64,000 bases of DNA from an uncultured Candidatus Saccharibacteria bacterium (GTDB lineage Bacteria; Patescibacteriota; Andersenbacteria; UBA10190). Location of the stretch: positions 13,816 to 77,815 of the forward strand of contig CAYJKV010000005.1 in the NCBI GenBank assembly GCA_964371255.1, in the 5' to 3' direction. The notes under the pieces were generated by a model. It was given only the letters and a program-made list of their open reading frames with translations, did no database searches and was not told the DNA's origin. Positions 3,474 to 22,451 of this stretch are shown one piece after another. The first letter of the stretch is position 1; every line of letters begins with the position of its first letter. The translations under genes and the position numbers were made by a program.

Positions 3474-3476
3474 CAA

Positions 3477-4085
3477 CTACCCCTGTTTCATTCCGCTCTT
3501 TTTCTTCCTGCTTACCCACCACTCATCGTTCTTGTCCGCAAACCACCAGTGATCAGAATCTGTTTTTAGGATGCGTAAAGCCAGCCGCTTGGCTGGTTTT
3601 GTTATCAGACGTTTAACTGCTGATGGAATCCATGTCTTGGCCCTGGCGTTTCCAGTATCCGCCTGTTCTTTCAAGGATAATATCCAGTCAAGATTATCTG
3701 CATCCTTAGCCAGCCTGGCCTCCTTGGTCCGCCGTTCCTTATATTCCCGGATTATTTCTAGAATATCCTGTCCAAATGGTAAAGTTGCCGCCAAATCTTC
3801 CACCGCCTTTTGCTCATCTGCCTGTGCGTACTTCTGATGCACATAATTCAAGTCTGATGTCCTGGCTTCTGCCAGGTCATGAAAGAGACACATTTTCAAT
3901 ACCTTCTCCATATTTACCCCCTTTTCCATTTGTGCCAGCGCGTAGCCGATAAACACATCACGACAAATATGTTCCGCCACAGACTGCTTACCGCTGCCCA
4001 GAAAATAAAAGCCGCTGCGCGGCGTTTCCGCCAATATCCCAACCTCAAACAGAAAATCCACTATTTGTGCCGTGTCTTTAGACAT
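3477..4085 (-). CDS. HD-domain phosphohydrolase (YfbR-like 5'-deoxynucleotidase family)
   Basis: Carries the H..HD..E metal-binding pattern (SVAEHI....LFHDLAEARTSD) typical of HD hydrolases. Confidence 0.7.
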   Translation of the reverse strand: MSKDTAQIVDFLFEVGILAETPRSGFYFLGSGKQSVAEHICRDVFIGYALAQMEKGVNMEKVLKMCLFHDLAEARTSDLNYVHQKYAQADEQKAVEDLAATLPFGQDILEIIREYKERRTKEARLAKDADNLDWILSLKEQADTGNARAKTWIPSAVKRLITKPAKRLALRILKTDSDHWWFADKNDEWWVSRKKKSGMKQG

Positions 4086-4135
4086 CTAGTCAGCTTAGGG
4101 ATTTTCTCGAAATAAAAAAAGCCCTAGCGTTTATG

Positions 4136-4396
4136 CTAGGGATTTATCGCGATTTTATCCTTCTTACGGTCTCGCCAGAACCAGATATAAATCCCGTAAA
4201 TCCAATTCATTGTATAAGCAATGTTTAGGAGAAATACTCCCCACTGGTCATTCAGATAAGATGTAATAAACCAAAAAGGAGCACTCACCAACCCAATCAC
4301 AAATCCCCACTTATTTTTCCGTGCCACCAAGAAAATAGCCGTCACACCGGTCACGGTTATCATTATTTGGCTGATTAAATCGAGCGTCATCATCAT
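4136..4396 (-). CDS. Small integral membrane protein (2-3 TM, Trp-rich)
   Basis: 86-aa ORF that is mostly hydrophobic helices. No recognisable family. Confidence 0.4.
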   Translation of the reverse strand: MMMTLDLISQIMITVTGVTAIFLVARKNKWGFVIGLVSAPFWFITSYLNDQWGVFLLNIAYTMNWIYGIYIWFWRDRKKDKIAINP

Positions 4397-4424
4397 TCCT
4401 TAAATAAATATTACCACTGCTTCT

Positions 4425-5963
4425 CTACCTTCCGCCAAATCGCCTCAGGTCTCTGGCCAGCAACCACTCTACCGGCGCATAATCATCGGTAAAAATTACC
4501 GTATTCTCACTCGGTTCTTCTAATCCTTCAATTAATTGCGCGGGCAATGACGATAGTATACTGCCAGGCATTAAATTTTCCGGTTCCGCTATCTCCACCC
4601 GCTTGCTAGTCTTAAACCCCACAGCCGCGATGTTTTGAATGTCTTTCGTATCCGGATCTACCGCCGCAAAAAAATAACTGTTCGGCCATACCTTACGCCA
4701 GGTCGCAATTTGCGCCGTCGCGTAGGTTGTCTCTTCTACACCTACATTACCAATCAAATTAGCCACCATAACGCCATTAGCGCTGGTTTTATCTCGCGCT
4801 AACTGTAGAAACTCAAAGGTTGCTAAATGCGGAGGCACATTCCATCCTCGATACGCGTCCAGGTAAATTAAGTCGTATTCACCCGGCGATTTATGCAAAT
4901 ACCTCCGGCCGTCCTCAATGACTACCCTTAAACGCTCACTATCTGGCACTTGAAAATAACGCCTTGCTAAACCAAATAACCTCGGCTCGATTTCCGCCAC
5001 GTCGACTCTAACAGCCGGATCATTTTCTAATAACATCTTAGGCACTATCATCGCTCCCCCGCCGATTACCAGCGCCTTGTTCAATTCCGGCCTGGTCAAT
5101 TTATATAATTCAAAATACTTGTTAAACCCAAACGCCGTTTCCCCGTCCGGCAACAAAATAGCGCTTTCCGCCGTCGCGTCCTGCCAAAGTATACGGGCTA
5201 GCCTGCCTTCATAGATCGTATCGGTTATCGTTATCCGGTCATACAAACCATCTATCATATAAACTACCTTATCCGACCATCTTCCCTGTTGTATTACCCA
5301 CAAAGACATGCCGACCATTACAGCCATTACCACAAAATTAGTCGTCCTTTTCCTACTGCTAAACAATCTTTGGCTATTACCGAGCAGCCCTATACCAAGT
5401 AGCAACAAAGCCACCCCGGTGACAATTAGTCTGAGGCCATAATGTGGGATTAGGTAAAATCCAGTTAAGAAGGTGCCGACAATACTGCCTGCCGTCCCCC
5501 AAAAAAATATACTACCGGCCACCGTCCCGGCCCCCTCCTCGGGCTGTGATTTATGCTGCAAAGCCACCGCGTATGGTGATACCATACCCAGCAATAACGC
5601 TGGGCCAAAAAACAGCAGCACGCTAAATACTGGCGGGCCGCTTACCATTGAGAAAAAATTCACGCTCATAGGCAAGAGGAAGGCTAGTAACAGTTGCAGC
5701 GCCAGCACACTCAAACCACTCAGAATAATTATATTAAACAGATATTCCTCTTTAGTGTACTTATCCGCTATCCGTCCCCCTAAATAATAACCGACACTCA
5801 GTGCGGCTAAAACCACACCAATCACACTCGAGACAGTAAATATGGTCGTGCCAAAAAACGGTGCCAGGATTCTAGTTGCCACCACTTCGACTACGAGTAC
5901 GCAGCCGCCCGTCAAAAAAACCACTGCTTTGAGCTTATTGTTCTTCACCCAGTTAATTAGCAT
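4425..5963 (-). CDS. Fused polytopic membrane domain plus spermidine synthase-like (PABS) aminopropyl/methyltransferase domain
   Basis: N-terminal half has about 8 TM helices. The C-terminal half carries a Rossmann GxGxG-type motif (VIGGGAM) and the spermidine-synthase-like block DLIYLDAY. Confidence 0.7.
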   Translation of the reverse strand: MLINWVKNNKLKAVVFLTGGCVLVVEVVATRILAPFFGTTIFTVSSVIGVVLAALSVGYYLGGRIADKYTKEEYLFNIIILSGLSVLALQLLLAFLLPMSVNFFSMVSGPPVFSVLLFFGPALLLGMVSPYAVALQHKSQPEEGAGTVAGSIFFWGTAGSIVGTFLTGFYLIPHYGLRLIVTGVALLLLGIGLLGNSQRLFSSRKRTTNFVVMAVMVGMSLWVIQQGRWSDKVVYMIDGLYDRITITDTIYEGRLARILWQDATAESAILLPDGETAFGFNKYFELYKLTRPELNKALVIGGGAMIVPKMLLENDPAVRVDVAEIEPRLFGLARRYFQVPDSERLRVVIEDGRRYLHKSPGEYDLIYLDAYRGWNVPPHLATFEFLQLARDKTSANGVMVANLIGNVGVEETTYATAQIATWRKVWPNSYFFAAVDPDTKDIQNIAAVGFKTSKRVEIAEPENLMPGSILSSLPAQLIEGLEEPSENTVIFTDDYAPVEWLLARDLRRFGGR

Positions 5964-6083
5964 ATCTCATGATTATGCGGTAGTAGCCAAGTACAGCGCA
6001 ATCCTACCGTACTGATCTGTTAAGCTGTTCATTACATCCTTAAAAAGGATTATGCTTAACATAAATTATCTCTTTTACTCATT

Positions 6084-6569
6084 ATGACTATCAAACGGCT
6101 CCCTATTCTGCTGTCCTTGTTGGCATTCTCCGTGATTGTTATGGTGGCTTTAGCCTCGTCGCCACAATCCGGCGTTATCTTATCTGCTAGTATCCCGCGC
6201 GAATATTCCGTCCCCAAGTGGCAATGCGACGTCATCTGCAAATGTTCCGCCCCAAGCATGATGTCCGAAATCTTCTATGAGGTAATTGGCACCACCTCTG
6301 GACAGGAAGTAGTTTGTGCTTTGACTGATCCCGCTCCTAACTCCAGCAACCCGGGTAATTATGGCATTCGCAATAGTAGTAACTGTAACACCGAATGCCA
6401 AGCAGCATATCCCAACCGCAACGATGTAAGAGGGGCTTCCATCGTCAGCAGCCGGCAGGCTTGTCACAGAATTGGCGAATGTCTTGTGCCCACTCTGATT
6501 AAATCAAGTTCACAACAAATCCGACCCGCCGAAAATCCGTCTTTGCCGATAAGTCTTTCATCCAGCTAA
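6084..6569 (+). CDS. Secreted Cys-rich hypothetical protein
   Basis: N-terminal signal peptide. At least 10 cysteines in 161 aa. S/N-rich. Confidence 0.4.
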   Translation: MTIKRLPILLSLLAFSVIVMVALASSPQSGVILSASIPREYSVPKWQCDVICKCSAPSMMSEIFYEVIGTTSGQEVVCALTDPAPNSSNPGNYGIRNSSNCNTECQAAYPNRNDVRGASIVSSRQACHRIGECLVPTLIKSSSQQIRPAENPSLPISLSSS

Positions 6570-6966
6570 TACATTCCTTTTAGTCCAAACCAGGCCTACT
6601 CTGGCACTGATTAATTAACAGACCATCCATACGCCAGCGGCGCGATTACTTTATTTATTATGAGTCAGTTCTGGGTTTTACTAGCAAACTGATGTCGCCT
6701 GGTGGCGTCGGAGCAGTGAAGCGATAAGGGAAGGGGTACCTACCCTCCTTCATATAATGAGCTCCTTCGTAAAACCGCATTCGAAGCTTTTAGCAGACTA
6801 CTACAGCTAATTTTTAATTAGCTAATTTTGGTACAAGAATTGCTAAAATGCACGATTTTAGCCTCTGCAAGGCTGCACTTGACTATTTATCAAAAAAAGA
6901 GTATCATATAAAGTCAGTTTTGACCATTCTTTGACAACCTATACCTCCCACTGAAAGGGGTTCACC

Positions 6967-7578
6967 GTGTCCACAATTCAGAGCATTCTGTCAGTGGTCG
7001 CTGGTCTGCTGTTCTTGGCTGGGTTCGTTCCCTACATTATCGCCATCGTTCGTGGCGAAACGAAACCTGCCAAAGCGTCCTGGGTCATTTGGGCATCACT
7101 CGACACCATCACACTCGTCGGTATGTATGTCTCTAACGCCATGAATGGACAAATCATCGGTGCAATGCTCGGTGCCTGGGTTGTGGTTGCACTGGCCATT
7201 AGGTACGGAAAGCCTGGATGGACAAAGCTGGACGCGTTCTGCTTGGTTGGAGCCGTTGTTGGCATCGTTCTCTGGCAAACGTTCAGTAACCCTGTTCTGG
7301 CAATCCTGACGAGCCAATGCGTCGTATTTATCGGTTCGATCCCAACGTTCGTGTCAGCTTGGCATGATCCCAGCAAGGAGGATCGGACTGCCTGGACGAT
7401 CTTTTGGCTGTCCTGTGTGGCTGCTGTGATTGCGATTCATTCGTGGACTCTACAAGACGCAGCCCAGCCTGTCACTTTCTTCACGATTGAGACAGTGATG
7501 ATGTATCTTCTGTACTTACGGTCTAGAGCTTCAAAGCTTCCTGAGAAGAGTGAGCCTATAAGTCCCAATTATGAATGA
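6967..7578 (+). CDS. Polytopic membrane protein (about 6 TM), hypothetical; GTG start
   Basis: Hydrophobic helices throughout. Locally GC-rich compared with the flanks. Preceded by an AT-rich region containing a 12-bp palindrome, aattagctaatt. Confidence 0.45.
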   Translation: MSTIQSILSVVAGLLFLAGFVPYIIAIVRGETKPAKASWVIWASLDTITLVGMYVSNAMNGQIIGAMLGAWVVVALAIRYGKPGWTKLDAFCLVGAVVGIVLWQTFSNPVLAILTSQCVVFIGSIPTFVSAWHDPSKEDRTAWTIFWLSCVAAVIAIHSWTLQDAAQPVTFFTIETVMMYLLYLRSRASKLPEKSEPISPNYE

Positions 7579-7613
7579 GTCGAGAACCGAACACCCCTAC
7601 AAAGGAGAGTAAG

Positions 7614-7826
7614 ATGACTCTACGTGTCGTCGGGTGGGGATGTCAGGCAGGCGAGATGTGTGAGCTCTGTTTCGAAAACAGAGCGACCGTCTACGTCACG
7701 GACACACAAGACAAAGGCATGGATTTGATTCCTGCCTGCAACTCCTGTGTGCCTCCTGGCTCTTGCCCAGACCCCATCGCTGATGTCTTCGCCCGAGTTC
7801 TGGAAAAAGCTTCCGCCAACCAGTAA
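7614..7826 (+). CDS. Small Cys-rich protein (two CxxC-type clusters), hypothetical
   Basis: AAGGAG ribosome-binding site 8 nt upstream of the ATG. Cysteine pattern GCQAGEMCELC ... ACNSCVPPGSC. Same GC-rich patch as the upstream membrane protein. Confidence 0.35.
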   Translation: MTLRVVGWGCQAGEMCELCFENRATVYVTDTQDKGMDLIPACNSCVPPGSCPDPIADVFARVLEKASANQ

Positions 7827-7942
7827 CAAAAGCGTCGATGTCAGACACCCCTAGTAGCTTACGAGCGAACGGGGTTTTCTTTACTCAAATTCCAAATAAA
7901 TAGGGTCAGGTAAATGGGTAAATGAAGTTCAGCCAACGTTTC

Positions 7943-8002
7943 TGCAATTTGCCGAACTTGCAGGCTTTGCCTGCAAACTGAGACCACTGTGTGGTGAAGG
8001 AG
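7943..8002. repeat. 60-bp direct repeat, copy 1 (59/60 identical to 9001-9060); contains an 8-bp-stem hairpin TTGCAGGC-ttt-GCCTGCAA and ends in GGTGAAGGAG
   Basis: Read directly from the sequence. A few partially similar bases also lie immediately upstream (cagccaac vs cagccacc). Confidence 0.9.
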
Positions 8003-8399
8003 TAGAAAAATCACGAAGTGGTGGAATGCAGGCGTCAGGTACTTTTATTCATTAGTCCCACTTCGCTTCCGCCAGTTAGCGGATGGTGGAGCTTCGCGGG
8101 ACCCTTCTTCGCATCTGTCTATGAAGTATCAGACAAGAAGAAATGGCTTTCCCGTCCTTCTTCGCCAAGGCTTCGAAGAACACTTCTTCTAAACTGGTCT
8201 GAAAATTGAATGTTATACCAAAGAAGGGCTTACGCTTCGAAGCTCCTGCGTCAGCAGGAGTGAAGAAGTGAGCTGGCACCAAAAATACACAGCGATGACA
8301 TATATTAATCATGAGAGATATCAATCTTCCGTCTTCCGTCAAAAGCGGGGCACGAGACAGCTAGTCGTGGTTCACCTAGTGCGCTAAACTGTTTCTTGT

Positions 8400-8957
8400 A
8401 TGTTTTATAATGTCTTGTTAGCTGCGGGATCGACCTCTAATCCGGCCCTCGAAGCAGCCATTGCCGTGGAAACTCATAGCTGGTGGTACTACTTCCTTAA
8501 TCCTTTATTGCTGCCAAATCTGGTACCTAGTGGTTACTTTTATTTAGAGAGCGTGTTGTGGATACTTCTAGTGATTGGTTTTGTTCTGCAAAAGAAACCT
8601 CGTCGCTACTATATAAGAAGAATGTCAATTGGAATGGGTATTGCTATAGTCATGGTTGGTTTAGGGCTAATAGTTCCCTCAGCGATAATTCTATTTACAT
8701 TGCCAATATCGCTGTGGATTATGGCGCATGCTCCTTATGTTTATCACTATAATCGTTATCCTGAAGGAATTGGTGATCAGCTGCTAATTATACATGCAAT
8801 TCTAGCGAATGTTCCTATTGCTGGTATATTTTCTGGTGCACTGGGTCACAGTAGTCGTATATATAAGTGGCTTTTTGTAATTGCTTTCCTTTTGCTTTGT
8901 GCCTACAGTTTGTTGATCCTGTTTATGTTTAGGTTTGCTGCTTCTGCTTACGGATAG
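8400..8957 (+). CDS. Polytopic membrane protein, hypothetical (AT-rich)
   Basis: 185 aa with 5-6 hydrophobic helices. Lies between the two 60-bp repeats. Confidence 0.45.
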   Translation: MFYNVLLAAGSTSNPALEAAIAVETHSWWYYFLNPLLLPNLVPSGYFYLESVLWILLVIGFVLQKKPRRYYIRRMSIGMGIAIVMVGLGLIVPSAIILFTLPISLWIMAHAPYVYHYNRYPEGIGDQLLIIHAILANVPIAGIFSGALGHSSRIYKWLFVIAFLLLCAYSLLILFMFRFAASAYG

Positions 8958-9000
8958 GAAACGTGGGGTCAATGATGAATATGCGGGCAGCCACCACTTA

Positions 9001-9060
9001 TGCAATTTGCCGAATTTGCAGGCTTTGCCTGCAAACTGAGACCACTGTGTGGTGAAGGAG
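9001..9060. repeat. 60-bp direct repeat, copy 2
   Basis: tgcaatttgccgaatttgcaggctttgcctgcaaactgagaccactgtgtggtgaaggag, differing from copy 1 by a single base. Confidence 0.9.
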
Positions 9061-9469
9061 CTAGAACAGACCGATCGGGGCGAACCTCAACCTGCTGGTC
9101 GGGCCTCGCTTTTATTATAGCGGGCCGCCCAGCCCTTGGCTGGAGCGAGCCTCGCTCAAAAATCGCTAGCAATTTTTGAGCTCCTTTTTGAGTGACGTGC
9201 TAACTGCGGTTAAGGATATGAAGGTTGTATTCTTTGTGCCTAACTATAGCAGTTCTGCCGCCTATTAGCCCATCTTGGGCAAGAGTAGAGCAACCACCCA
9301 CAACGGGGATTGTGACGTGGCGATGGCTCGTGGAGTGAGCGGCAAGCTGCTTCCTCTCTCTCCACTCGGACTGATGTAGACAGGAGGGATGGGAGCACCC
9401 TAAGACACTCTGCGCGTGTAGGGGTGGTGTTCCATTCGCGCTCGCATTTATATCAAATCCAACAACTAC

Positions 9470-9940
9470 CTAAATTATTCGAGCATCAAGACGTTTTTCG
9501 CTCGCGTCATATGTTATCCAAACAATCTTACCTTGCCACTCACTCGGTGGATTTTTCAGTCTCTCGCTCAACTCGCTCCACATTGCTTCTAGTTCCTTCT
9601 CTTGCTCTGGCAAGATAATGTTCAAGGATTGAGCGAACTCCACTTTGGTTACCGTCATCCATCCACGAAGGTGTTTCTTTGGCCTCATTCGCTTCATTAA
9701 TTTCCAGAGCGCAAGAAGTGTGCCCTGGAAAGCAGTCCACAGCGTCCCATCTCGCAGAAAAGCAACAATATCAAAATTAGCGAAAACAATTTTGACTACT
9801 TCCTGCAAATCACCGTAGGCCTCCGTTCGATACTGATATATGTCAACATTAAAGTTAACCGAACTAAAAATATCCTTTACTTCCTTGAGCTCGGCTGACG
9901 AAATATCACTGATGGCTAATTGGAATTTGTCTTTCTTCAT
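9470..9940 (-). CDS. Hypothetical 156-aa protein; downstream partner of the 766-aa membrane protein
   Basis: Sits 3 bp downstream of the preceding ORF on the same strand. AT-rich. No recognisable motif. Confidence 0.5.
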   Translation of the reverse strand: MKKDKFQLAISDISSAELKEVKDIFSSVNFNVDIYQYRTEAYGDLQEVVKIVFANFDIVAFLRDGTLWTAFQGTLLALWKLMKRMRPKKHLRGWMTVTKVEFAQSLNIILPEQEKELEAMWSELSERLKNPPSEWQGKIVWITYDASEKRLDARII

Positions 9941-9943
9941 TTG

Positions 9944-12241
9944 TTATGAATCCTTATCGTTAGTAATCTGGCGTAGTTCTGCAACCCCTACCCTCACCTC
10001 ATTGTAATTGAGAGTCGAGGCAACCTTCGATTGTGCTTCATTAATACCAGGAATACGGTGCAAAAGATTATAATATTCCTCTTCTAAATTACGAATGCCA
10101 CGGAAGAAATCGAGGCCTATTTTATCATCTTCCTCGCGAAACTTTTTCTTATATTCAGAATAAAGCGCGGATATTTTATCTGACGCGAGTTTTTTGGCAT
10201 CGTTATCTCCCTTTTTTCCTGCATAGAGAACAATGTAGGCAAGTTTATCTGCTATACGTGGTACGCGATAAAAAGCTTCCATATCCTTTTCTAGAATCTT
10301 TTTAGCAGCATAAGCAAGGGAATGTATGGCCGCATCAGTAATTTCTTTAGACTTAATATCAATTCCGTTCATTGCCGAGGTTGCCAGCAGGTCATCAAAA
10401 CCCCAACCTTCCTGCCCCGTAAAATTTGTAAGCTCCTTATATAATTTCTGGAAGTAATAGATTAGCCAGGATGCATCACCCTCGATTTTCTTTTTGTCAG
10501 CCATATTCTCGCCTCGCAGTAGCTCAAAGTAGATTAGTAGAATACTGCGGATATTCATCCCGATTTGATGCAGAAGAAAGGAACCATTCCTCACAATAGG
10601 TATCAGGTCACGGTAGAAGCGATGGCTTAATTCCTCACTGAATTCATAAAAGATATGATGATACTGGTCATAAAGTTCTTCGTTATTTGCACCAATCTTT
10701 TGAGCTAGACCGTAGAATGTATCCACTAAAGTTGTTTCGCCTGCGCCACTCATTATTGGTTCATAAGCGTGCGAAATATCAACTCGTCCCTTTAGGGTGC
10801 CAGTCTCTAATTGCGGTAATGACACAGAAATGAGGGCCTGAATATGTTGTAGTGTAGGTTGCAGTATTTGAGCCGCTATAAAGGGCTCCTGAATCGTGGC
10901 TACGCGCAAGATGCCTCCAAGTCCCTTTAGCGCATATGTAGTTAAATACCACTGCTGGTGAACCAAACCCAGCAGTCCCAATTCCTTTAGTTTTTCTTGG
11001 ATGGTTAAAACGGTAAGATATGACTTCTGTTGAACAAGAAATGCAGCAGTTGCGCCTAAAATACCTGAACCCTGAAGGCCAACATCATACATACCCTTGT
11101 GAATACACGTTTTGATGCTATCAAATAAGAAGCTTATCGCCATCGCAGCGACGCTATTTTCTACATTTTGTTTTGGTATTGGCTTTACCGCAGTAGCCGT
11201 GTAAGCAATTTCAGCAAATTCAGCAATAATCACCGAGGCCATTTCCTTGTCTTTGTTGCTGACTGCAATCTCAACAACGGAATGGAGGCGGTCATACACT
11301 TGTTCCATAAATCGGGAACTGGCAGTGCGAGGAATGCTGGAAGTAAAAAACATCCCCGTAAAATCCATAAAATTATTGAGTCGAATAGCAAGATATTGCC
11401 TAACTAAAATGGCAATGTAGTGCACTCCTGTCTTTACGACATCTAACCGTCGTTGTTCAGCAAAATGCTTAGTTATCTCAAAAATTTCATTGAGGTTGTA
11501 CTCAAATCCTTGCGTAAACTCTTTGGCATTATCGTAAACAAATGCTTGTCTTTCTTCCTTGCTTGGCGCAGGCATTGTTGTGTCCTTTGACGTAACACCG
11601 CCGAATAAAATAAATCTCTCAATATGTAGTGGCAGTTTTCGCAAATGTTTTATGCTGGGTAGAAAGTATAATTCTCGTATTTGGGTCGAGGGGTTAGCCA
11701 TTTTTGCTGCATAAGAAAAGACAGCCCACCAGAGCCCAAAACTTTCGATAAGAAAGAGACAGGCAAAGATTACAATAGGGAGGACAGTATATTTATTGAT
11801 TGGTATGAAGGTGAGAGCAAAAGATGCAAAAGCAATAATCGTCAGCGAAATAAACGCTAGGTAAAAAAGAGGCTTACGGCGAATTGCTTCGGCTGTACCA
11901 ACCGTTGATTTCTCAAGTGTTTGTTGTAAGGCAAATTGAGCCAAGCCAAAGACAATGACAGAGCCAGCGCCTAGAACAGTCCCGATGCCAATGGCAAGTT
12001 GTTGTAAGAGGCCTTCATTAGTTAAGCGGTACAGCAAATAACCTGTTATTGCTTCCTGGTAAAAGCCGAGCAGTACAAGTAGCAAGGCAAACAATGAAAG
12101 GGCAGATGAAAATAGCAATAGTTGCCTATGCGCATATAGCAGGCGCAGAATCTTCCAATAGCCATAAAACCAGGCCTTCAAGGCAGCTATACGAAAACGG
12201 TGCCAAATTCTGTTCTGATGCGGCATAAGCTTATTATGCAT
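9944..12241 (-). CDS. Large 4-TM membrane-anchored all-alpha protein (766 aa), hypothetical
   Basis: After the first ATG (12241) there are four hydrophobic helices, then about 550 aa that look predominantly helical. No Walker, nuclease or known catalytic motif seen. Low GC. Confidence 0.6.
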   Translation of the reverse strand: MHNKLMPHQNRIWHRFRIAALKAWFYGYWKILRLLYAHRQLLLFSSALSLFALLLVLLGFYQEAITGYLLYRLTNEGLLQQLAIGIGTVLGAGSVIVFGLAQFALQQTLEKSTVGTAEAIRRKPLFYLAFISLTIIAFASFALTFIPINKYTVLPIVIFACLFLIESFGLWWAVFSYAAKMANPSTQIRELYFLPSIKHLRKLPLHIERFILFGGVTSKDTTMPAPSKEERQAFVYDNAKEFTQGFEYNLNEIFEITKHFAEQRRLDVVKTGVHYIAILVRQYLAIRLNNFMDFTGMFFTSSIPRTASSRFMEQVYDRLHSVVEIAVSNKDKEMASVIIAEFAEIAYTATAVKPIPKQNVENSVAAMAISFLFDSIKTCIHKGMYDVGLQGSGILGATAAFLVQQKSYLTVLTIQEKLKELGLLGLVHQQWYLTTYALKGLGGILRVATIQEPFIAAQILQPTLQHIQALISVSLPQLETGTLKGRVDISHAYEPIMSGAGETTLVDTFYGLAQKIGANNEELYDQYHHIFYEFSEELSHRFYRDLIPIVRNGSFLLHQIGMNIRSILLIYFELLRGENMADKKKIEGDASWLIYYFQKLYKELTNFTGQEGWGFDDLLATSAMNGIDIKSKEITDAAIHSLAYAAKKILEKDMEAFYRVPRIADKLAYIVLYAGKKGDNDAKKLASDKISALYSEYKKKFREEDDKIGLDFFRGIRNLEEEYYNLLHRIPGINEAQSKVASTLNYNEVRVGVAELRQITNDKDS

Positions 12242-12254
12242 ATATAATGACGGT

Positions 12255-12638
12255 ATGGCACAAAATTTGACGGTTAAACAGCGCAGATTTGTTTCCGCCC
12301 TGGTAGAGCACGGTAATGCCACGCAAGCTGCTATTGATGCTGGCTACGAAGTACAAGACAGGATGTCAGCCAAAGTTATCGCCAGCCAGAACCTGGATAA
12401 GCCGAACATTCGCACAGCCCTTGATGCTGCCCTCTCACAGCGTGGCCTGGATGAGACTGCTATCGTTCAAGGACTTGCACGGCTTCTGGAATCCGAAAAC
12501 TTGGCTCACGTTGCCAGAGGCGTTGAGCTCCTATTAAAAATTAGAGGTGATGCCGCACCAAAACGAAGTATGCACGTACGTATGAGCTATGCCGAGCGAA
12601 TTAGGGAGGAATTAACCAGAAACGACCAACAAAACTGA
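12255..12638 (+). CDS. Phage terminase small-subunit-like protein (Terminase_2-type N-terminal HTH), orphan
   Basis: LTVKQRRFVSALVEHGNATQAAIDAGYEVQDRMSAKVIASQNL matches the conserved N-terminus of P27-family TerS (LT.KQ..F..Y...NATQAA..AGYS). No TerL, portal or capsid genes nearby. Confidence 0.7.
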   Translation: MAQNLTVKQRRFVSALVEHGNATQAAIDAGYEVQDRMSAKVIASQNLDKPNIRTALDAALSQRGLDETAIVQGLARLLESENLAHVARGVELLLKIRGDAAPKRSMHVRMSYAERIREELTRNDQQN

Positions 12639-12703: not shown

Positions 12704-13474
12704 CTACTCATTATTTTTTACCCAGAAAATCACTCGTTTCTCTAAAAGGACAACCACCCAGAAAAATAAAATTCCAGCCAGTGCCGCCGCAATGACTGCA
12801 CTAAACATTTTTACTATCTCCAAGTGATAGGAGTTAACTAGAATTAAATACCCAATGCCTCTATTTGCACCAACAAACTCACCAACAATTGCCCCAACGA
12901 CAGCGAGCGAGGTTGATATTTTAAGAGCCGAAAAGATATAGGGTAAGGCATTTGGTAATCGCAGCTTAGTAAAAATTTGCCATTTGGTTGCCGACAGGCT
13001 GCGTAGTAGGTCTAATGCTTCAGTATCCACCGCCTTAAGCCCCTTTGTTGTATTAACTATGGCAGGAAAGAAAGCGATTAGGGCTGCCGCAGCAACTTTG
13101 GATGATATACCGTTACCGAACCATAGCAGGAGTAATGGAGCCATTGCGATAATAGGAGTTGTTTTAAGGGCAATAGCATAGGGATATAACCCTTTTTCAA
13201 GCGTAGATGAGTGAGCAAAGACAATAGCGACAAGTACACCAATGGCGTTAGCAAGTGCAAAACCAAGAAAAGCCTCCCAAAGAGTAATACCTGTATGAAA
13301 AGCAAGGGTGTGAATGTTGACGATGAAATCTATAACAATTGCCGATGGCGCAGGAAGAAGATACTGTGGCACCTCAAGTGCACGAACAGTAAACTCCCAA
13401 GCAATGAGTATTGCCACGAAGGCAACAGCAGGAGCAAGGAAGTATGTTATTCGTGAAGTTGATTTCGTAGCCAT
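12704..13474 (-). CDS. ABC transporter permease, NitT/TauT family
   Basis: About 6 TM helices. Genomic context is an ATPase and NMT1-like binding proteins. Confidence 0.8.
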   Translation of the reverse strand: MATKSTSRITYFLAPAVAFVAILIAWEFTVRALEVPQYLLPAPSAIVIDFIVNIHTLAFHTGITLWEAFLGFALANAIGVLVAIVFAHSSTLEKGLYPYAIALKTTPIIAMAPLLLLWFGNGISSKVAAAALIAFFPAIVNTTKGLKAVDTEALDLLRSLSATKWQIFTKLRLPNALPYIFSALKISTSLAVVGAIVGEFVGANRGIGYLILVNSYHLEIVKMFSAVIAAALAGILFFWVVVLLEKRVIFWVKNNE

Positions 13475-14187
13475 TGGATTTGGTCTAAATATTCTTTACT
13501 GCTTTTTGTCTCAATTGCACGGGGACGAGGTAGCTGTATGTCTCTTACTGCCGCGATAGTCGCGGGTCGGTCTGATAAAACTATCACCTTATCTGATAGA
13601 AAAACTGATTCGGATAATGAGTGGGTAACAAAGAGAATAGTTTTCTTAGTCTTCTGCCAAATGTCTAGCAAGACCAAATTCATTCTTTCTCGCGTAAGTT
13701 CATCTAAAGCTCCAAACGGCTCATCCATTAACAGAATGTCGGGATTAAAAACTAGCGCACGAGCTAGGGATACTCGTTGCTTCATTCCACCAGACAACGC
13801 ATCAGGATAGTAGCCCGCAAACTCTTTCAGTCCAATTAGCTCAATGAGCTCTTGTGCTTCGGCAAGAGGAGAAGTATCCCCAATAATCTCTAACGGGAGT
13901 TCTACATTCTTTAATACCGTCCGCCAGGGAAATAAAACGGGGTTCTGGAACACAAAACCAAGTTCTCTTTTTTTAACTGCTACATCAAGCGAACTCTCTT
14001 TGATGCTTATGTGCCCGCGCAGTGGAGGAAGGAGACCCCCAACTATTTTAAGTAGTGTTGTTTTACCACAGCCAGAGGGGCCGACAATACTGACAAACTC
14101 CCCCTCCTGTATTTGGAAATTAATATCACGCAGGACGTGGAGAGAATCATAGGAATGATAAACATTCTGGGCTGCAATGAACGACAT
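13447..14187 (-). CDS. ABC transporter ATP-binding protein, NitT/TauT family
   Basis: Walker A GPSGCGKTT, signature LSGGMKQR, Walker B LLMDEPFGALD. Confidence 0.9.
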   Translation of the reverse strand: MSFIAAQNVYHSYDSLHVLRDINFQIQEGEFVSIVGPSGCGKTTLLKIVGGLLPPLRGHISIKESSLDVAVKKRELGFVFQNPVLFPWRTVLKNVELPLEIIGDTSPLAEAQELIELIGLKEFAGYYPDALSGGMKQRVSLARALVFNPDILLMDEPFGALDELTRERMNLVLLDIWQKTKKTILFVTHSLSESVFLSDKVIVLSDRPATIAAVRDIQLPRPRAIETKSSKEYLDQIQWLRNQLHE

Positions 14188-15197
14188 TATGGTAAAAACT
14201 CATTAGTGAATACCTGACGAGGGTCTAATTCTTGTTTAAGCAATTCCTGCTGCTTTAGAATCTCTGTTGTAGACTCCCACACTGAAGCCTCCATCAAACC
14301 AACCTTTGATTTTGCAGGCTGAACCAGAAGCTTGGTTGCAGAAAAGCTATCTTGCTCAAATTGCTCATTAAGTTGCGGGTCATATTTTCTTGCTAGTGCG
14401 TGTGCCTCTTGCTCATTATTAACTGCATATTCCCACCCACGAATAGTGGCATTGAGAAATTTTTGCACCGTTTCGGGATGTTCATTAATAAAGTCCTCAC
14501 GGGCAAAGATAACCTGGGCATACATAGGAATTCCATAGTCTTTCGGGAAAATGAGATTTGTCTCGAACCCCTGCGCCCTGGCAATGATGGGCTCAACATT
14601 GATGAAGCCTGGCCAGACATCAACTTCCCTTCTAAAGAAAAGGGTCATATCAAATTTTACAGGCACCTCCGTAACATCGCTGGACTTGATATTAAACTGG
14701 CTCAGGAGAGCTCGGTAAAGGATTTCTGTATCAAGGCCAGTCTTAACGCCAATTTTCTTTCCTCTAAAATCGCTAGGTGTGGTTATGCCAGAATCTTTGT
14801 GCGAGAAATAAACGATAGGATTTTCTTTGTAAATCGCTGCTATCGCTTTAATCGGGATGTCTTTATTTCTTGCCTGCAGAACTTCTACTGCCCCAGCCAT
14901 TCCGAAAGTATCAGAGCCGCTAGCAACCAGCAGGATAGAATTATGGTCTACACCTCCTGGGTGAATATCAACCTTTAGTCCTTCGTTTTCATACAATCCT
15001 CTTTCTTGCGCGGCATAATATCCCTCAAATCCTGCACCGTGCAGCCAAGCCAGCCTCAAAGAAATATTTTCTGCGTTATCGCTTTGTTCAGTCCGATTCC
15101 ACCAGAGAGTAGCAGTAATAAGAGCGACGAATACGATAAGAAGTATAGTTGCTTTTGAGCCAGTTATCTTAGGAAATAGTGGCATATTATTGCACAA
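14187..15197 (-). CDS. ABC substrate-binding protein, NMT1/THI5/SsuA-like (paralog 1)
   Basis: Signal anchor, then LRLAWLHGAGFEGYYAAQERGLYENEGLKVD...VASGSDTFG, typical of NMT1-like periplasmic binding proteins. Confidence 0.8.
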   Translation of the reverse strand: MCNNMPLFPKITGSKATILLIVFVALITATLWWNRTEQSDNAENISLRLAWLHGAGFEGYYAAQERGLYENEGLKVDIHPGGVDHNSILLVASGSDTFGMAGAVEVLQARNKDIPIKAIAAIYKENPIVYFSHKDSGITTPSDFRGKKIGVKTGLDTEILYRALLSQFNIKSSDVTEVPVKFDMTLFFRREVDVWPGFINVEPIIARAQGFETNLIFPKDYGIPMYAQVIFAREDFINEHPETVQKFLNATIRGWEYAVNNEQEAHALARKYDPQLNEQFEQDSFSATKLLVQPAKSKVGLMEASVWESTTEILKQQELLKQELDPRQVFTNEFLP

Positions 15198-16194
15198 ACT
15201 CTGTAGTAAAAGTCTTGTCTATTTCTACCGCATTTTTCATAAAGCCTTGCTCCAATAGTAATGTTTGTATTGACCGCCAAGTGGCATCATCCATAAAACC
15301 GACAGGGTTACTGTCTGGCTTCACCAGTGGAATACTTGCTTTCATCATTTTGGTTTCGTGTTCCTGATTAAGCTTGTCGCTAGACTGCAATGTATAAACC
15401 ACCGCCTGTTCAGGATTTTGCAAAGCAGCCTCCCACCCCTCAATAGTTGCTTGGACAACTCGCTGCACCACATCGGGCTTGTTCTTAATCATCTCCTCGG
15501 TAGTGAACAAAGTATCAGCATAGAGATTCACACCATAATCACTCGGCCAAATTAAATTGACCTGATGACCTTGTTCTTCAGCAGTAAGCGGTTCATTAAT
15601 GGCATAACCTGGCCAAACGTCTACCTGCCTGGTAAGGAGCGGCGTAATATCAAACTTTACAGGAACTTCCTGAAAGGACTTAGAATCAACACCCGCTTTC
15701 TTAAGTACAGCACGATACGTTAATTCCTCATTGCCGCCCAACTTCACACCCACCTTCTTGCCAACAAAATCTTTCGGCGAAGTAATATCAGAATCTTTTA
15801 GTGAAAATAGTACAAAGGGACTTTTTCGGTAAATAACCGCAAGTGCCACGACAGGAATTTCCTTTTCTCGCGCCAGCAAAATCTGGTCTGCCCCTGTTAC
15901 ACCAAATTGGTCTGACCCGCTAGCAACCATCTGAATTGCAGGAAAATCAACACCCCCTGGCTGAAGTGTGACGTTTAGATTTTTATCCTTGTAGAATCCT
16001 CCTTTATCGGCAAAGTAGAAACCTGCAAATTGAGCTTGGTTTAGCCACTTAAGACGAATAGAGACATTTTCTCCGTTTCCTGTCTCTAATAATGAATTAT
16101 TTTTACGAGCTGAAATTCCCCACCACAGAAGGGCACCTATTCCCATCACTATTATTGCGGCAATCAAAGTTTTCTTACTTGAGTTCATTATCAT
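15187..16194 (-). CDS. ABC substrate-binding protein, NMT1/THI5/SsuA-like (paralog 2)
   Basis: Paralogous to 14187-15197 (IRLKWLNQAQFAGFYFADKGGFYKDKNLNVTLQPGGVD..MVASGSDQFG). Confidence 0.8.
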   Translation of the reverse strand: MIMNSSKKTLIAAIIVMGIGALLWWGISARKNNSLLETGNGENVSIRLKWLNQAQFAGFYFADKGGFYKDKNLNVTLQPGGVDFPAIQMVASGSDQFGVTGADQILLAREKEIPVVALAVIYRKSPFVLFSLKDSDITSPKDFVGKKVGVKLGGNEELTYRAVLKKAGVDSKSFQEVPVKFDITPLLTRQVDVWPGYAINEPLTAEEQGHQVNLIWPSDYGVNLYADTLFTTEEMIKNKPDVVQRVVQATIEGWEAALQNPEQAVVYTLQSSDKLNQEHETKMMKASIPLVKPDSNPVGFMDDATWRSIQTLLLEQGFMKNAVEIDKTFTTEFVQ

Positions 16195-16265
16195 ATTTGC
16201 TATTTATAAAATGCAGTGGTTTCAGGAAAAAGTCCACTTTTCCTGTACCCTAAAGAGCAAATATT

Positions 16266-16484
16266 TTAATGCAGTCCTCGGAAGAGTTCTGCTAAAGAGA
16301 CTCCTAAAGCTCTAGCAATTTTCTCAATGTTAATGATGGATACGTTCTGCTCACCACGCTCAACAGAGCCAATGTAGGTGCGGTGTATTTTAGCTTTCAT
16401 CCCCAAGTCCTCTTGCGAGAAGCCACGCTGTAGCCGTAGCTGCCGCACTCGTTCCCCTAAGTAATAACGTATATCCCGTGCCAT
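16266..16484 (-). CDS. XRE-family helix-turn-helix transcriptional regulator (cI/Cro-like)
   Basis: LRLQRGFSQEDLGMKAKIHRTYIGSVERGEQNVSIINIEKIARALGVSLAEL is a classic HTH_3 sequence. Divergent from the downstream + strand gene block. Confidence 0.8.
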   Translation of the reverse strand: MARDIRYYLGERVRQLRLQRGFSQEDLGMKAKIHRTYIGSVERGEQNVSIINIEKIARALGVSLAELFRGLH

Positions 16485-16589
16485 ATCTGTATGGTCGGGC
16501 TGATGCAGTCAATGAATCTACAGACAATAACTAGCATTAGCATTGAGCTAGTGATACGGTAGTAATGATGACTATAACTAGCGTTCTTT

Positions 16590-16958
16590 ATGCCGCTTCG
16601 TAATATATTCATAACCCTGGCTATAATTGTTTTAGGCTGTTTGGTGCTGGGGTGGCTGTTTGGTTCAATCACAAGTGCTGCATATTCTTACAGAAAACGG
16701 ATAGACCCTGTTGGGCAATATTATCTGGATATTTTGTGGTGGAAACAGCAAGGGTGGGACTTGCTTAGATACGGCATAGGCGGATTCTTTATCTGTGTAC
16801 CGATGATTTTTGCTTTCTTTTTTCTGTTTGATAGTTTTAATGACTTGTTCAATCAAAATCCGCTTTCGCCAGTATTCCTCGGCAAGATGTTAATTCTATT
16901 TTTCGTGTCGGGTTTTTTGATGTATTCAGCCAACTCAATTCTTGAAAGCAGAGAATAA
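16590..16958 (+). CDS. Small membrane protein, hypothetical
   Basis: 122 aa with 3-4 hydrophobic helices. Confidence 0.45.
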   Translation: MPLRNIFITLAIIVLGCLVLGWLFGSITSAAYSYRKRIDPVGQYYLDILWWKQQGWDLLRYGIGGFFICVPMIFAFFFLFDSFNDLFNQNPLSPVFLGKMLILFFVSGFLMYSANSILESRE

Positions 16959-17342
16959 ATGACAAAAAAGCACGGTATCGTTCGCCTCGCCTTTCTTGAC
17001 GACGGCCTATCATCGCTGGCGTATGTCCTACACACGCTACAATCAGCCCAGCCTGTGTTGGAGAGTCAGGGAGTAATAATAGCCCTCACCATCCTGCCTA
17101 AGTCCTTACCCCAAACCAGGCACTACGTTGAAACAATGATACTGCGGCAGCAAGATATTCTCTTGTATAACCAGGAGCATCTAAAAAATGACACAGCCAC
17201 CTTATTTGGGGTTAAAGAAGTACAACCATACAGACTATGGCTACGGGAAGGTCAAGAGCACAATTCTGACGACTACGGCACGCTCCAAGAAGCCCTGCAA
17301 GCCGTGTTTGCTCACCTTAAAGTACAAACCCCAGCACTATGA
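16959..17342 (+). CDS. Hypothetical protein
   Basis: Starts at the stop of the previous ORF. No recognisable motif. Confidence 0.4.
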   Translation: MTKKHGIVRLAFLDDGLSSLAYVLHTLQSAQPVLESQGVIIALTILPKSLPQTRHYVETMILRQQDILLYNQEHLKNDTATLFGVKEVQPYRLWLREGQEHNSDDYGTLQEALQAVFAHLKVQTPAL

Positions 17343-17508
17343 TTACTCTCGAACAAGCCCGTAAATTTTATCCCAAAGACCAGTGTCCGCCTGACGACGT
17401 GATACTCCGCGTTCTCGCTTCATCTTACCGCCTCGCAGAAATGGAGTGGGACATTATGATGGACGAAAAAGCAGCAGAACGAAAAAAGAAAGATGGTAAG
17501 AAAAACCT

Positions 17509-17715
17509 ATGACTGTTGCCGAAGCACGCAAGTACCTTACTCCCGAAGATAACCAACGTCTGTCAGACGCAGAGGTGCAAAAACTCTTGGCCGAGGATTA
17601 TACTCTGGCAGATATAGCCATTGATGAAGTGCTGAACAATGGGCCGTTTTACAGGAAGTTGAAAAAGGAGAAAGATAAAAACAATGCCAAAGACTATCCG
17701 CATTCTGTTACTTGA
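17509..17715 (+). CDS. Hypothetical small protein
   Basis: 68 aa. Overlaps the next ORF. Confidence 0.3.
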   Translation: MTVAEARKYLTPEDNQRLSDAEVQKLLAEDYTLADIAIDEVLNNGPFYRKLKKEKDKNNAKDYPHSVT

Positions 17716-18097
17716 GGACGACCTGGCAACAGTTTCGGCTATCGCCCAAAAGCTGGCTGAGTTGGAACAGGATTTGCAGGAGCGCGGCACCGACATCGCC
17801 TTAACTGTACTATCTGAATACACGCAGGTGGAGCAATACATCAACACTGATAAAGTTCATCAATATGATATTGTCCTCCTTGACCGCGACTGCAAAGCTG
17901 GCGGGTCTTTCCACGCCCTGGATTTTGAGAGGATTGGCGTTGAGAAAATAATCTCCATTTCATCTACCCCGCAGTGGAACGAAGAAGCGCAAGCGCGAGG
18001 TATAACTAACGTTGTTTGGAAGGATTATAGCAACCTTGAAAACTTTGCAGCCGAACTATCGCACATTATCAGGAGCACCATAGCTGACTTGGCGTAA
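17684..18097 (+). CDS. Stand-alone CheY-like receiver-domain protein
   Basis: IRILLLEDD...DIVLLDRDC...IISISS resembles the acidic pocket, phospho-acceptor Asp and conserved Ser/Thr of REC domains. No output domain. Confidence 0.5.
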   Translation: MPKTIRILLLEDDLATVSAIAQKLAELEQDLQERGTDIALTVLSEYTQVEQYINTDKVHQYDIVLLDRDCKAGGSFHALDFERIGVEKIISISSTPQWNEEAQARGITNVVWKDYSNLENFAAELSHIIRSTIADLA

Positions 18098-18144
18098 CTG
18101 CTTTTCAGAGCCACACTAAAATTGGTTGCGTAAGGCGGCCACTA

Positions 18145-18909: not shown

Positions 18910-19433
18910 TCCGTCGGGTGGTCGTCGGGTGTAGATAACTTTTGATTGAAAGGCTACATAAGCTTTCAATTTTTTGGCTAAAAATTACGTAAGCGTCCTG
19001 TTCCCGTCCGACGAGACGCGACCCTACCGTTGTAGGTAATGACACGAAGCATTACCTCAACTCAACACTGGACGACCAGCGACCTCGCAATGGCTGCTGC
19101 TATTTCGTTATGGGAACCAATTGAGGACATTGATACTTCGCGACCACGAGCAGTTTTCAAGTTTGCAAACTGTCAGCGAGTACAAGAACTGGCAGACAAA
19201 TACCACCGTGGAGTAATTCGCATCGAGCCACGCCAATTTTTTGACCAAATCCGCGCCGTCAAAGCGCGGATATACGCCTAATTTTATGCAGCCCACTGCC
19301 ACACAGGTTGCCCGTTACCAAGAACTGTACCGCCGCTACGGTATTGAAATTACCGAACAGCAAGCCCGCGAGGAAGGTGCAGCCCTAATGCAGCTTGTGT
19401 CGCGTATTTACCGACCCTTAACGCAAAAGGAAT

Positions 19434-19910: not shown

Positions 19911-20190
19911 CCAGCTTACTAAAATGCGCGGCAATGGACTTCCAGCGTGCGGCAACCATACAAACACACATCGGCAATCGTCGTCCAGTGAACGGCAACA
20001 TAACGGATTTTGACAGCTTTTTTCCTTTTGGAAAAGTTACTCAATTTAGCCAGGAAATAAGGGTGAACGGCAATTTTTGTGCGCGCTGTACTAACTCCTT
20101 ATCGAATACGAATATCCAGCTCTTTTTAACAACTCATTCGAGAGGTGCGCAGATTTTTCTGAAGAAAAATCTGCTGCCCCAGGGGGCTTT

Positions 20191-20777: not shown

Positions 20778-22388
20778 ATGGAAAATAAAAAAATGCGGTA
20801 CGTTATGTACCTTCGTAAAAGTACTGATGAGGATAATCGCCAGGTGCAGTCAATTGACGACCAGAAAAAAGAACTCGACCGCGTGGTGGAGCAGCACGGC
20901 TTAAATATTGTGGAGATTATCAGTGAGTCGCGGTCAGCCAAAAAACTTGGGCGGTCAGGCTTCAATAAAATGATTGAAATGATTGTAAGTGGCAGTGCCG
21001 ATGCAATTTTATGCTGGGAGGCAACCCGCCTCGCGCGTAATCCCGTTGATGGTGGAAAAATCCAGTGGCTTATGCTGGAAGGGAAAATTAAAGTGGTGCA
21101 CACCCCGCAACGAAAATACCTCTGTACTGACAATGTCATTATGATGGCTGTGGAGTTTGGTATGTCCACCCAGTTCAGTGTTGACCTGGCAAAAAATGTG
21201 AAGCGCGGAATGTTAAGCAAAGCAGAAAAAGGCTGGCGGCCAGGACAGGCTCCACTTGGCTATCTGAACGATAAGGTAGAAGAAAAAGGCAATAAGCGTA
21301 TCTACACGGATAATGAAAAGTTCCCTATTGTTCGTAAGCTATGGGACTTATTGCTATCAGGCAATTACACCGTCCCTGCGCTCGTCACTATTGCTAACGA
21401 GCAGCTTGGCCTGCGTACCAAGCGAGGCAAGAAAATCAGCCTGGGCAGCCTGTATCACCTGTTCAATGATAAGTTCTACTACGGTGAATACACTTTTGAC
21501 GGTGAAGTCTACCAGGGCAAGCACAAGCCAATGATTTCTGCCGAGGAGTTTGACCGCACCCAAAAGATTTTAGGCCGTGCGGGACGGCCGCGACCAAAGT
21601 ACAAGCGGCTACCATTTAATGGGTTAATCCAATGCGCTGCCTGCGGTCGCACTATCACCTGCGATGAGCGGGTCAAGGTCATTAAGCGTACAGGCGAAAC
21701 CAAAAGTTTTATGTACCATCGCTGCACGCATAAAACTAGGAACCACTACTGCCCGCAGCCGCCCGTGACATTTGGCAACTTGGTCGAGCAGGTGCAGCAG
21801 TACCTGGGTAACATCACTATCCCGCCAGAGTTCTTAGAGTGGGCCGTACAGTCACTACGCGAGCAGCAGAAGCTGGAAGAAACGAACCGCAACCAAATCC
21901 TCGCCAACCTACGGAACAACCACCAGAACGTGATTGACCGCATTGATAGTCTGGTCAACAACTATATCGCGCCAGAAAATGCCAAGCGCGAACTAATTAG
22001 CGACGATGATATGAAGCGGCAAAAGGCTGCGCTCCTGCAAGAGAAGTCAGTGATTGAGCGGGAGTTGAGTAACACAAGTCTGCGCGTTAATGAGTGGGTG
22101 GACTTAACCATCAAAACTTTTCACTTCGCCACCTACGCCAAAGCCTGGTTTGATAAAGGCGACTACGAAACCAAGACTGCTATTCTCCGCGCGCTTGGCG
22201 TGACATTCACACTCAAAGACCGTAGCCTCCTGTTGGACTTGAAAGGGCCGTACGTCGTCATTAAAAAAGGTGTTGCAGCAGGATTGTTTGAGAACCCCGT
22301 ACTCGGACTGGTCAGGAAGGCTCTGCAAGAGCCTGCGCTGGCTCAACAGCCTGAAATTGCATCCGTATTATCCAGTTGGAGCGGGTAA
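20778..22388 (+). CDS. Large serine recombinase (resolvase catalytic domain + recombinase domain + Zn ribbon)
   Basis: N-terminal YVMYLRKSTDEDNRQ..SIDDQ is the catalytic-Ser motif region. Mid-section matches the recombinase domain. C-terminal CAACGR..C...YHRCTHK..HYC is a Zn ribbon. The stop codon lies inside the tRNA-Gly 3' end. Confidence 0.9.
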   Translation: MENKKMRYVMYLRKSTDEDNRQVQSIDDQKKELDRVVEQHGLNIVEIISESRSAKKLGRSGFNKMIEMIVSGSADAILCWEATRLARNPVDGGKIQWLMLEGKIKVVHTPQRKYLCTDNVIMMAVEFGMSTQFSVDLAKNVKRGMLSKAEKGWRPGQAPLGYLNDKVEEKGNKRIYTDNEKFPIVRKLWDLLLSGNYTVPALVTIANEQLGLRTKRGKKISLGSLYHLFNDKFYYGEYTFDGEVYQGKHKPMISAEEFDRTQKILGRAGRPRPKYKRLPFNGLIQCAACGRTITCDERVKVIKRTGETKSFMYHRCTHKTRNHYCPQPPVTFGNLVEQVQQYLGNITIPPEFLEWAVQSLREQQKLEETNRNQILANLRNNHQNVIDRIDSLVNNYIAPENAKRELISDDDMKRQKAALLQEKSVIERELSNTSLRVNEWVDLTIKTFHFATYAKAWFDKGDYETKTAILRALGVTFTLKDRSLLLDLKGPYVVIKKGVAAGLFENPVLGLVRKALQEPALAQQPEIASVLSSWSG

Positions 22389-22451
22389 CGGGAGTCGAAC
22401 CCGTATCTCTACCTTGGCAAGGTAGTGTAAAAGCCATTATACGATACCCGC
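22377..22451 (-). tRNA. tRNA-Gly (anticodon GCC), CCA encoded
   Basis: Reverse-complement folds as acceptor GCGGGTA/TACCCGC, anticodon stem CTACC/GGTAG with loop TTGCCAA, T-arm ACGGG-TTCGACT-CCCGT, discriminator T, then CCA. Confidence 0.85.

Follow-up and report, generated by a model that had tools for sequence, protein, structure and literature searches.

The subject of this study is a pair of adjacent genes in a 64,000-nucleotide (nt) stretch of DNA from an uncultured Candidatus Saccharibacteria bacterium (GenBank assembly GCA_964371255.1, contig CAYJKV010000005.1, positions 13,816 to 77,815), the whole of which is referred to here as the window. The larger gene (9944..12241, minus strand) encodes 765 amino acids (aa) from its ATG and is assigned, from the list of open reading frames (ORFs), its homologues and an AlphaFold2 (AF2) model, as a membrane anchor of four transmembrane (TM) helices resembling the N-terminal part of the Pfam family DUF2254 (DUF2254-N), followed by a cytoplasmic alpha-solenoid. 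The smaller gene (9470..9940, minus strand, from the ORF list) begins 3 bp past the stop of the large gene and encodes a soluble protein of 156 aa. An earlier note on this DNA had described two ORFs on one strand, 3 bp apart, which was borne out, both lying on the minus strand; it had given the large protein 766 aa, where the ORF was right but the length was not, as the 766 codons include the stop. Alternative starts of the large gene exist at M6 (position 12226; 760 aa) and at an upstream in-frame GTG (792 aa), and public gene calls begin either at the ATG (765 aa) or at M6 (760 aa). The small gene has its own ribosome-binding site (AAGGA, 10 nt ahead of its ATG) and is probably translated from the transcript of the large gene, whose end is 3 bp upstream. 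Both are genuine genes: for the large one there are 149 homologues and a model with a predicted local distance difference test (pLDDT) score of 92, and for the small one a syntenic homologue (32% identity, E = 2e-30). The GC content of the pair is 41.6%, where the window averages 45.9% (z = −2.0; only 3.9% of equally long segments have a GC this low), and GC at third codon positions (GC3) is 0.39 in the large gene compared with ∼0.50 in gyrA, the pyrophosphatase (PPase) and RNase Y. The low GC reported earlier is thus real but moderate, and this foreign composition was counted in favor of a role in defense.

The large protein was compared with 1.84 billion cluster representatives by an exhaustive HMMER scan, which recovered 149 relatives at E ≤ 1e-3, of which 42 remain at E ≤ 1e-10. 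Nearly all of these are 700 to 820 aa long and collinear with the window protein (alignments span residues ∼20 to 750), with an identity of 41% for the best match, P0011, and of 15 to 26% for the others. Judged by homology, the 765-aa protein belongs to a divergent and uncharacterized family, and one that diverges fast. Its own place in that family follows from collinear, full-length homology to proteins of ∼700 to 820 aa that carry both modules. A word-indexed search of 5.8 billion proteins returned self matches only, for both window proteins as well as for the family profile, and taken without the exhaustive HMMER scan it would have wrongly suggested that the two are ORFans. Scans of genome contigs found nothing. 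Neither window protein matched Pfam, NCBIfam, PADLOC or PHROGs, and for the large protein nothing appeared in Pfam even at E ≤ 1. The earlier description of the large protein as having no recognizable domains therefore holds for the window protein itself but not at the level of the family, where the four-TM part of relatives is DUF2254-N-like: Pfam DUF2254 (PF10011) was matched by 25 of 40 relatives, in the N-terminal membrane part only (profile positions ∼9 to 168 of 368), with every PF10011 match ending at profile position 142 to 179. The PF10011 gathering threshold (28.8 bits) was exceeded by four of the 10 closest relatives scanned (P0012, P0016, P0017 and P0022; 29.8 to 48.3 bits); the window protein scores below it, and its membership of DUF2254 is transitive, via the family only. 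What the family shares with DUF2254 is thus the N-terminal four-helix membrane bundle seen in relatives, whereas the C-terminal half of DUF2254 (profile positions 169 to 368), a knotted or slip-knotted domain (PMC11184937), is absent, and an alpha-solenoid of ∼550 residues stands in its place. On these profile matches the four-TM part of the large protein can be described as DUF2254-N-like, with the C-terminal DUF2254 domain replaced by the solenoid. The match names a fold and not a mechanism, and a search of the literature on DUF2254, COG4325 and PF10011 found no functional information, the one substantive line of work on DUF2254 being about its knotted topology.

A Kyte-Doolittle scan of the large protein gave four hydrophobic segments (residues ∼40 to 62, 81 to 105, 123 to 149 and 150 to 176). 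Clusters of Lys and Arg were read from the sequence in the N-terminal 38 residues, in the loop between TM2 and TM3 and after TM4, and by the positive-inside rule this clustering places the N terminus, loop 2 and the large C-terminal domain in the cytoplasm. Modeled by AF2 with the family alignment, the protein is entirely alpha-helical, with ∼31 helices (mean pLDDT, 92.1; predicted template-modeling score [pTM], 0.88), arranged as an N-terminal amphipathic helix, the four TM helices, a long connecting helix and an alpha-solenoid of ∼23 helices; the earlier proposal of a four-TM, all-alpha protein agrees with both the hydropathy and the model. The membrane module (11687..12127, minus strand; residues 39 to 185, four TM helices) is delimited by hydropathy, family conservation and the PF10011 matches of relatives at profile positions 9 to 168 of 368, and the cytoplasmic alpha-solenoid (9947..11560, minus strand; residues 228 to 765, ∼550 residues and ∼23 helices) by AF2 secondary structure, Foldseek and conservation by region. 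A Foldseek comparison of the AF2 model against the PDB and viral models returned just generic HEAT/ARM repeats and designed toroids (template-modeling scores of 0.1 to 0.37), the HEAT/ARM-type matches having a probability of ∼1.0, E values of 1e-4 to 1e-2 and identities of 10 to 14%. The likeness to HEAT/ARM alpha-solenoids (importins and designed alpha/alpha toroids) is one of generic fold class for the cytoplasmic domain; it is an analogy of repeat architecture only, as none of these is membrane anchored or bacterial-immune. Sequence-profile searches of the PDB with the whole family or with the anchor alone returned only designed repeat proteins or noise, no catalytic motif was evident in the family and no housekeeping homology of the large protein was found in any profile, PDB or structure search. 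The remote-homology check that the earlier note had called for was thereby carried out by HMMER, PDB profiles and AF2 with Foldseek, and it gave no characterized relative and no housekeeping complex.

Conservation across the family is uneven. TM2 carries a conserved motif, G..AI.FS...F..Q (G87, A95, I96, F98, S99 and F103, ending in Q106, which is conserved at 98%); N183-P184 is conserved after TM4 (P184 at 98%), and the proximal solenoid (residues 266 to 400) has conserved positions at Y283 (94%), D309, E317, D331, Y371, D386 and G391. The distal 365 residues of the solenoid are more variable than the membrane module and the proximal solenoid. The window protein retains G87, F98, Q106, N183, P184, Y283, D331, D386 and G391. 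A profile built from 40 members picked up 21 ORFs with the two modules in fused or split form, and with this profile the anchor and the solenoid were found as neighboring genes in at least six metagenome loci (L016, L018, L019, L020/21, L022 and L023). In these split forms the anchor alone is 208 to 280 aa and the solenoid alone 498 to 564 aa, the two genes usually overlapping by 4 to 14 bp or lying 3 bp apart. Their occurrence as adjacent genes implies that anchor and solenoid are separable partners working together, and the comparison of loci defines a conserved two-part unit of membrane anchor plus solenoid, fused or split. The N-terminal extensions of longer relatives were considered as informative fused domains and rejected, being just extra hydrophobic or low-complexity sequence. 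In one metagenome assembly (a 6.8-kb ENA contig) the large gene is present as two ORFs, P0004 (293 aa) and P0005 (426 aa), which could stem from a frameshift, from pseudogene formation or from misassembly.

The small partner has a much narrower distribution. In L008, an NCBI metagenome-assembled genome, P0011 is followed by an ORF of 156 aa that overlaps its stop by 4 bp and is 32% identical to the window small protein (E = 2e-30); this is the only homologue of the small protein, and it shows that the small ORF encodes a protein and that the two genes have been inherited together within that clade. No relatives of the small protein were found among all ORFs of 15 other family loci, and searches with it of Pfam, PADLOC, the PDB, phages and viral contigs gave nothing. 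The genes downstream of more distant members are unrelated to the small protein and to one another, and an all-against-all BLAST of downstream neighbors revealed no hidden family among them; a 156-aa ORF upstream of P0022, examined as a possible partner homologue, proved unrelated. By this distribution the 156-aa protein is a lineage-specific accessory and not a hallmark of the family. The two-gene module put forward by the earlier note is not what the family conserves, as the partner accompanies only the single closest homologue, P0011, and is absent or replaced in all of the more distant members examined; co-occurrence, which the same note had wanted checked, is seen in L008 but not across the family.

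The pair lies in an island set among chromosomal genes (gyrA, RNase Y, trigger factor and a Na+-pyrophosphatase). HIP1 is not enriched in the window, and a cyanobacterial origin was rejected on that ground. At the right end of the island is a large serine integrase (20778..22388, plus strand; Pfam Resolvase and Recombinase, PHROG 95 integrase at 5.5e-66, and NCBIfam), whose stop overlaps the 3′ end of a tRNA-Gly(GCC) gene (22377..22451, minus strand; ARAGORN and Rfam), the likely integration target. Beside the pair stands a homologue of the small terminase (TerS) of SPP1 G1P type (12255..12638, plus strand; Pfam Terminase_2 at 1.5e-14, PHROG 51), which is 36 to 40% identical to SPP1 G1P-type TerS across ∼90% of its length. 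It is divergent from the large gene, and as the two starts are 13 to 28 bp apart both promoters must overlap coding regions. Beyond it are an ATP-binding cassette (ABC) transporter operon carried as island cargo (12704..16194, minus strand; a permease, an ATPase and two NMT1-type binding proteins), a Cro/CI-type helix-turn-helix (HTH) regulator of the island (16266..16484, minus strand) and, divergent from the regulator, a block of small ORFs without assigned function (16590 to 20469). The island contains no large terminase, capsid or tail genes, which makes it satellite-like or a decayed prophage, and the earlier statement that the pair sits in an accessory island beside a divergent, orphan small-terminase gene was confirmed on both counts. 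No att repeat was found for the island, nor does the tRNA end recur as a direct repeat anywhere from 3400 to 9500, leaving the left boundary undefined. Phage-inducible chromosomal islands (PICIs) and other phage satellites carry defense cargo (PMC9122126), and the present island resembles them in having an integrase, a Cro/CI-like regulator, its own small terminase and accessory genes beside terS, with structural genes absent. It differs in that its integrase is a large serine and not a tyrosine recombinase and in that no replication gene (primase or replicase) and no capsid-remodeling gene was recognized in it. The pair is thus carried as cargo by an integrative element of a satellite-like kind.

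The large protein was found on 31 metagenome contigs, all from one study series. The nine loci retrieved and compared all matched the window at 100% identity across the pair, and the full loci L001 and L024 were identical along their whole length when aligned; estimation of the ratio of nonsynonymous to synonymous change (dN/dS) from strain variation was abandoned, as all contigs compared were 100% identical. On the other side of the pair from the integrase the earlier note had placed a flanking repeat of 60 bp, which is present but is 73 nt long; its two copies, the only ones in the window (7930 to 8002 and 8988 to 9060, the second on the plus strand and downstream of the pair), are 93% identical and each contains two hairpins. 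The copies bracket a 185-aa multi-TM ORF (8400 to 8957) with no homologues outside this organism. The region from 8985 to 9200 folds better than 200 of 200 shuffles (z = −2.7), and neither the repeat nor this region matched Rfam. Farther along, beside a tRNA-Leu/Val/Phe/Gly cluster, an ORF of 236 aa (24257 to 24967) looks, by eye only, like a LAGLIDADG homing endonuclease.

Gene neighborhoods were informative for 13 family loci. Recognized defense genes occur within a few genes of the family member in seven of them, and recombinases or transposases in six (among them the window, L008, L016, L027 and L029). At L026, ApeA (HEPN; 2710 to 4056) and PIN genes lie immediately downstream, and at L018, ApeA (1565 to 2965) lies immediately upstream of the split pair. 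Upstream of the L010 member lie a type IIG Eco57I/MmeI enzyme (2117 to 5353) and radical-SAM and DUF5131 genes; at L027 a serine recombinase is followed by an SNF2-PLD protein and an MmeI-type methyltransferase (15120 to 18259). L028 holds an SNF2 protein, AbiEi/AbiEii, a 1,311-aa Eco57I-type enzyme (4069 to 8004), putAbiC, a restriction endonuclease (REase) and Cas1, with the Eco57I-type gene overlapping the start of the family gene by 4 bp. At L029 a convergent MmeI gene (8159 to 10246) is 21 bp away, accompanied by UmuDC, IS110 and a resolvase fragment. L012, the last of the seven, has Fic, an S24 repressor and DUF5131. Mobile-element or other nondefense genes occur elsewhere, namely a tyrosine integrase and IS630 (L016), WD40 and STAND-like proteins (L021), or envelope, glycosyltransferase, phosphoesterase or housekeeping genes (L015 and L019). 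In L008 a tight same-strand cluster within a serine-recombinase element (6210 to 10741) is made up of bPH_2, a 172-aa protein, an SNase, the large gene and the small gene, the SNase matching PADLOC model PDLC01096 (SNc+LTD) at 8e-45. ApeA (ApeA_NTD1 plus HEPN_Apea) thus adjoins two unrelated members, one fused (L026) and one split (L018), an adjacency that may reflect a specific tie between the two and not just their shared residence in defense islands. MmeI/Eco57I type IIG genes lie within three genes of four members (L010, L027, L028 and L029), two of which (L027 and L028) also have SNF2 helicases.

Taken with the architecture, these neighborhoods point to a conflict-associated, non-enzymatic, membrane-tethered, receptor-like protein. 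We tentatively read the family as a membrane-acting phage-exclusion or abortive-infection module in which a variable solenoid would be the sensor and the conserved membrane part the effector, and put the probability of this reading at roughly 40%. The variable distal solenoid would bind an invader-derived protein or sense a perturbation of the cell; the signal would run via the proximal repeats, which are conserved, and via Q106 and N183-P184 on the cytoplasmic face to the membrane bundle; and the four-helix bundle, probably oligomeric, would impair the membrane through ion leak or depolarization, or block DNA entry. The 156-aa cytosolic protein would act as a lineage-specific modulator, an inhibitor or adaptor, and not as a core component. 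What suggests immunity is a small set of neighborhoods only, and the defense or conflict role proposed in the earlier note is partly supported, in that the family recurs in defense islands and integrative elements.

A number of observations weigh against an immune function. The neighborhood tally covers 13 informative loci, a small sample with no matched background, and is suggestive rather than statistical, and the members at L015 and L019 sit among housekeeping or cell-envelope genes. Neither window protein matched PADLOC-DB v2.0.0, which includes Kiwa, at E ≤ 1, and 40 relatives gave just two isolated weak PADLOC matches (OloA at 5e-4 and SspB at 9e-3). No relatives of the large protein were found in phage, plasmid or IMG/VR collections, and a tblastn search of phages and plasmids with the window protein and two relatives had no match. 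The island in the window holds no canonical defense gene, the neighbors of the pair being the ABC transporter and TerS. The window protein itself departs from the family consensus at four positions (K123 for D, Y177 for R, S309 for D and F371 for Y), and the single-sequence AF2 model of the small protein is unusable (pLDDT, 43).

Known systems offer parallels of layout to the proposed module. RexAB of phage lambda is a prophage-encoded abortive-infection system in which a cytoplasmic sensor acts with a four-TM membrane component, leading to loss of membrane potential. The Sbash gp30/gp31 pair is reported to be a RexAB-like abortive-infection pair that is likewise prophage encoded (PMC6426596). 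The present family would work like both, coupling a cytoplasmic sensor to a four-TM component on a temperate or mobile carrier, and the expected output would be loss of membrane potential. They differ from it in that no sequence relationship was detected (no PADLOC model matched) and in that the window family is usually one polypeptide, with a large alpha-solenoid as putative sensor. Kiwa consists of the four-TM tetramer KwaA and the cytosolic KwaB (PMC11785009); it too pairs a four-TM membrane protein with a larger cytosolic partner encoded alongside, a layout shared by the split forms of the family, and both occur in defense islands. The family has no match to PADLOC KwaA or KwaB, however, and KwaB is a DUF4868 alpha/beta protein and not a solenoid. 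On sequence and predicted structure the family can be placed as a candidate new variant, here on a mobile island, of the theme of a cytoplasmic sensor with a small membrane effector.

The alternatives draw on the same loci. The large protein may instead serve the element that carries it, through superinfection exclusion against related elements or a helper phage, or as a membrane scaffold for induction, transfer or packaging, with the small protein as adaptor. Both partner-bearing loci lie within serine-recombinase elements, the pair is divergent from an SPP1-type TerS only 13 to 28 bp off, of a kind typical of phage satellites, and its sequence is identical in every metagenome contig with the island, all of which such a role would fit; but the small terminase is not conserved beside the homologous pair in L008, a locus that lacks TerS, most members are not beside packaging or transfer genes, and several are in chromosomal defense islands devoid of element hallmarks (L026 and L028). 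We consider an element-serving role unlikely. About as improbable is a membrane scaffold or sensor with no part in immunity, a membrane-anchored protein-docking platform that would act as an accessory of transport or the envelope and would have been acquired with the neighboring ABC transporter. The ABC operon, a complete importer, is two genes away and has a GC3 as low as that of the pair (0.35 to 0.39), alpha-solenoids are generic scaffolds and DUF2254 proper, a widespread family of membrane proteins, carries no defense annotation; relatives at L015 and L019 are also found among glycosyltransferase, phosphoesterase and housekeeping genes. Yet no transporter or envelope gene is conserved beside members (the neighborhoods of L008, L010, L012 and L026 to L029 all differ), identity is very low and distribution patchy, and defense genes recur in the neighborhoods. 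Type II toxin-antitoxin systems pair a small toxin with a small antitoxin, co-conserved and usually with the antitoxin upstream. An addiction module of that general sort, with the membrane protein as toxin and the small protein as antitoxin stabilizing the island, would suit the tight spacing on mobile elements in both lineages (a 3-bp gap in the window and a 4-bp overlap in L008) and a partner that evolves faster than the large protein (32% versus 41% identity), but it is very unlikely, given that in most members this partner is missing or the downstream genes are unrelated to it, so that the large protein cannot be constitutively toxic, that a “toxin” of 765 aa is far beyond the usual size, and that the partner lies downstream in an order (large gene first) atypical of type II systems and is not co-conserved.

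Within the preferred reading of a membrane-acting exclusion or abortive-infection module, a bolder version can be framed: that the fused or split family of DUF2254-N anchor plus alpha-solenoid is an undescribed, self-contained anti-phage system in which a receptor built of helical repeats would itself gate a membrane effector of four helices or bring about its assembly. Such a pattern-recognition receptor would be non-enzymatic, free of any NTPase and linked straight to the membrane, with lineage-specific add-ons such as the 156-aa protein tuning it. This version is doubtful. No description of the two-module family or of its function was found in the databases and literature searched, and the pair is a credible, well-defined and tractable candidate for a new phage-exclusion module: as the fused and the split form both occur in nature and the model is of high confidence, the family is experimentally tractable, with sensor and effector that would be separable and swappable. 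Should the family prove not to be immune, it would still represent a widespread, unannotated family of membrane scaffolds missed by databases, of which Pfam captures the anchor alone and in some members only. If it is immune, it would add a mechanism to membrane-level defenses, of which little is understood and only a few cases have been worked out (Rex, Kiwa, Tmn and Zorya), and it would offer a first way into the function of the large DUF2254 membrane superfamily.

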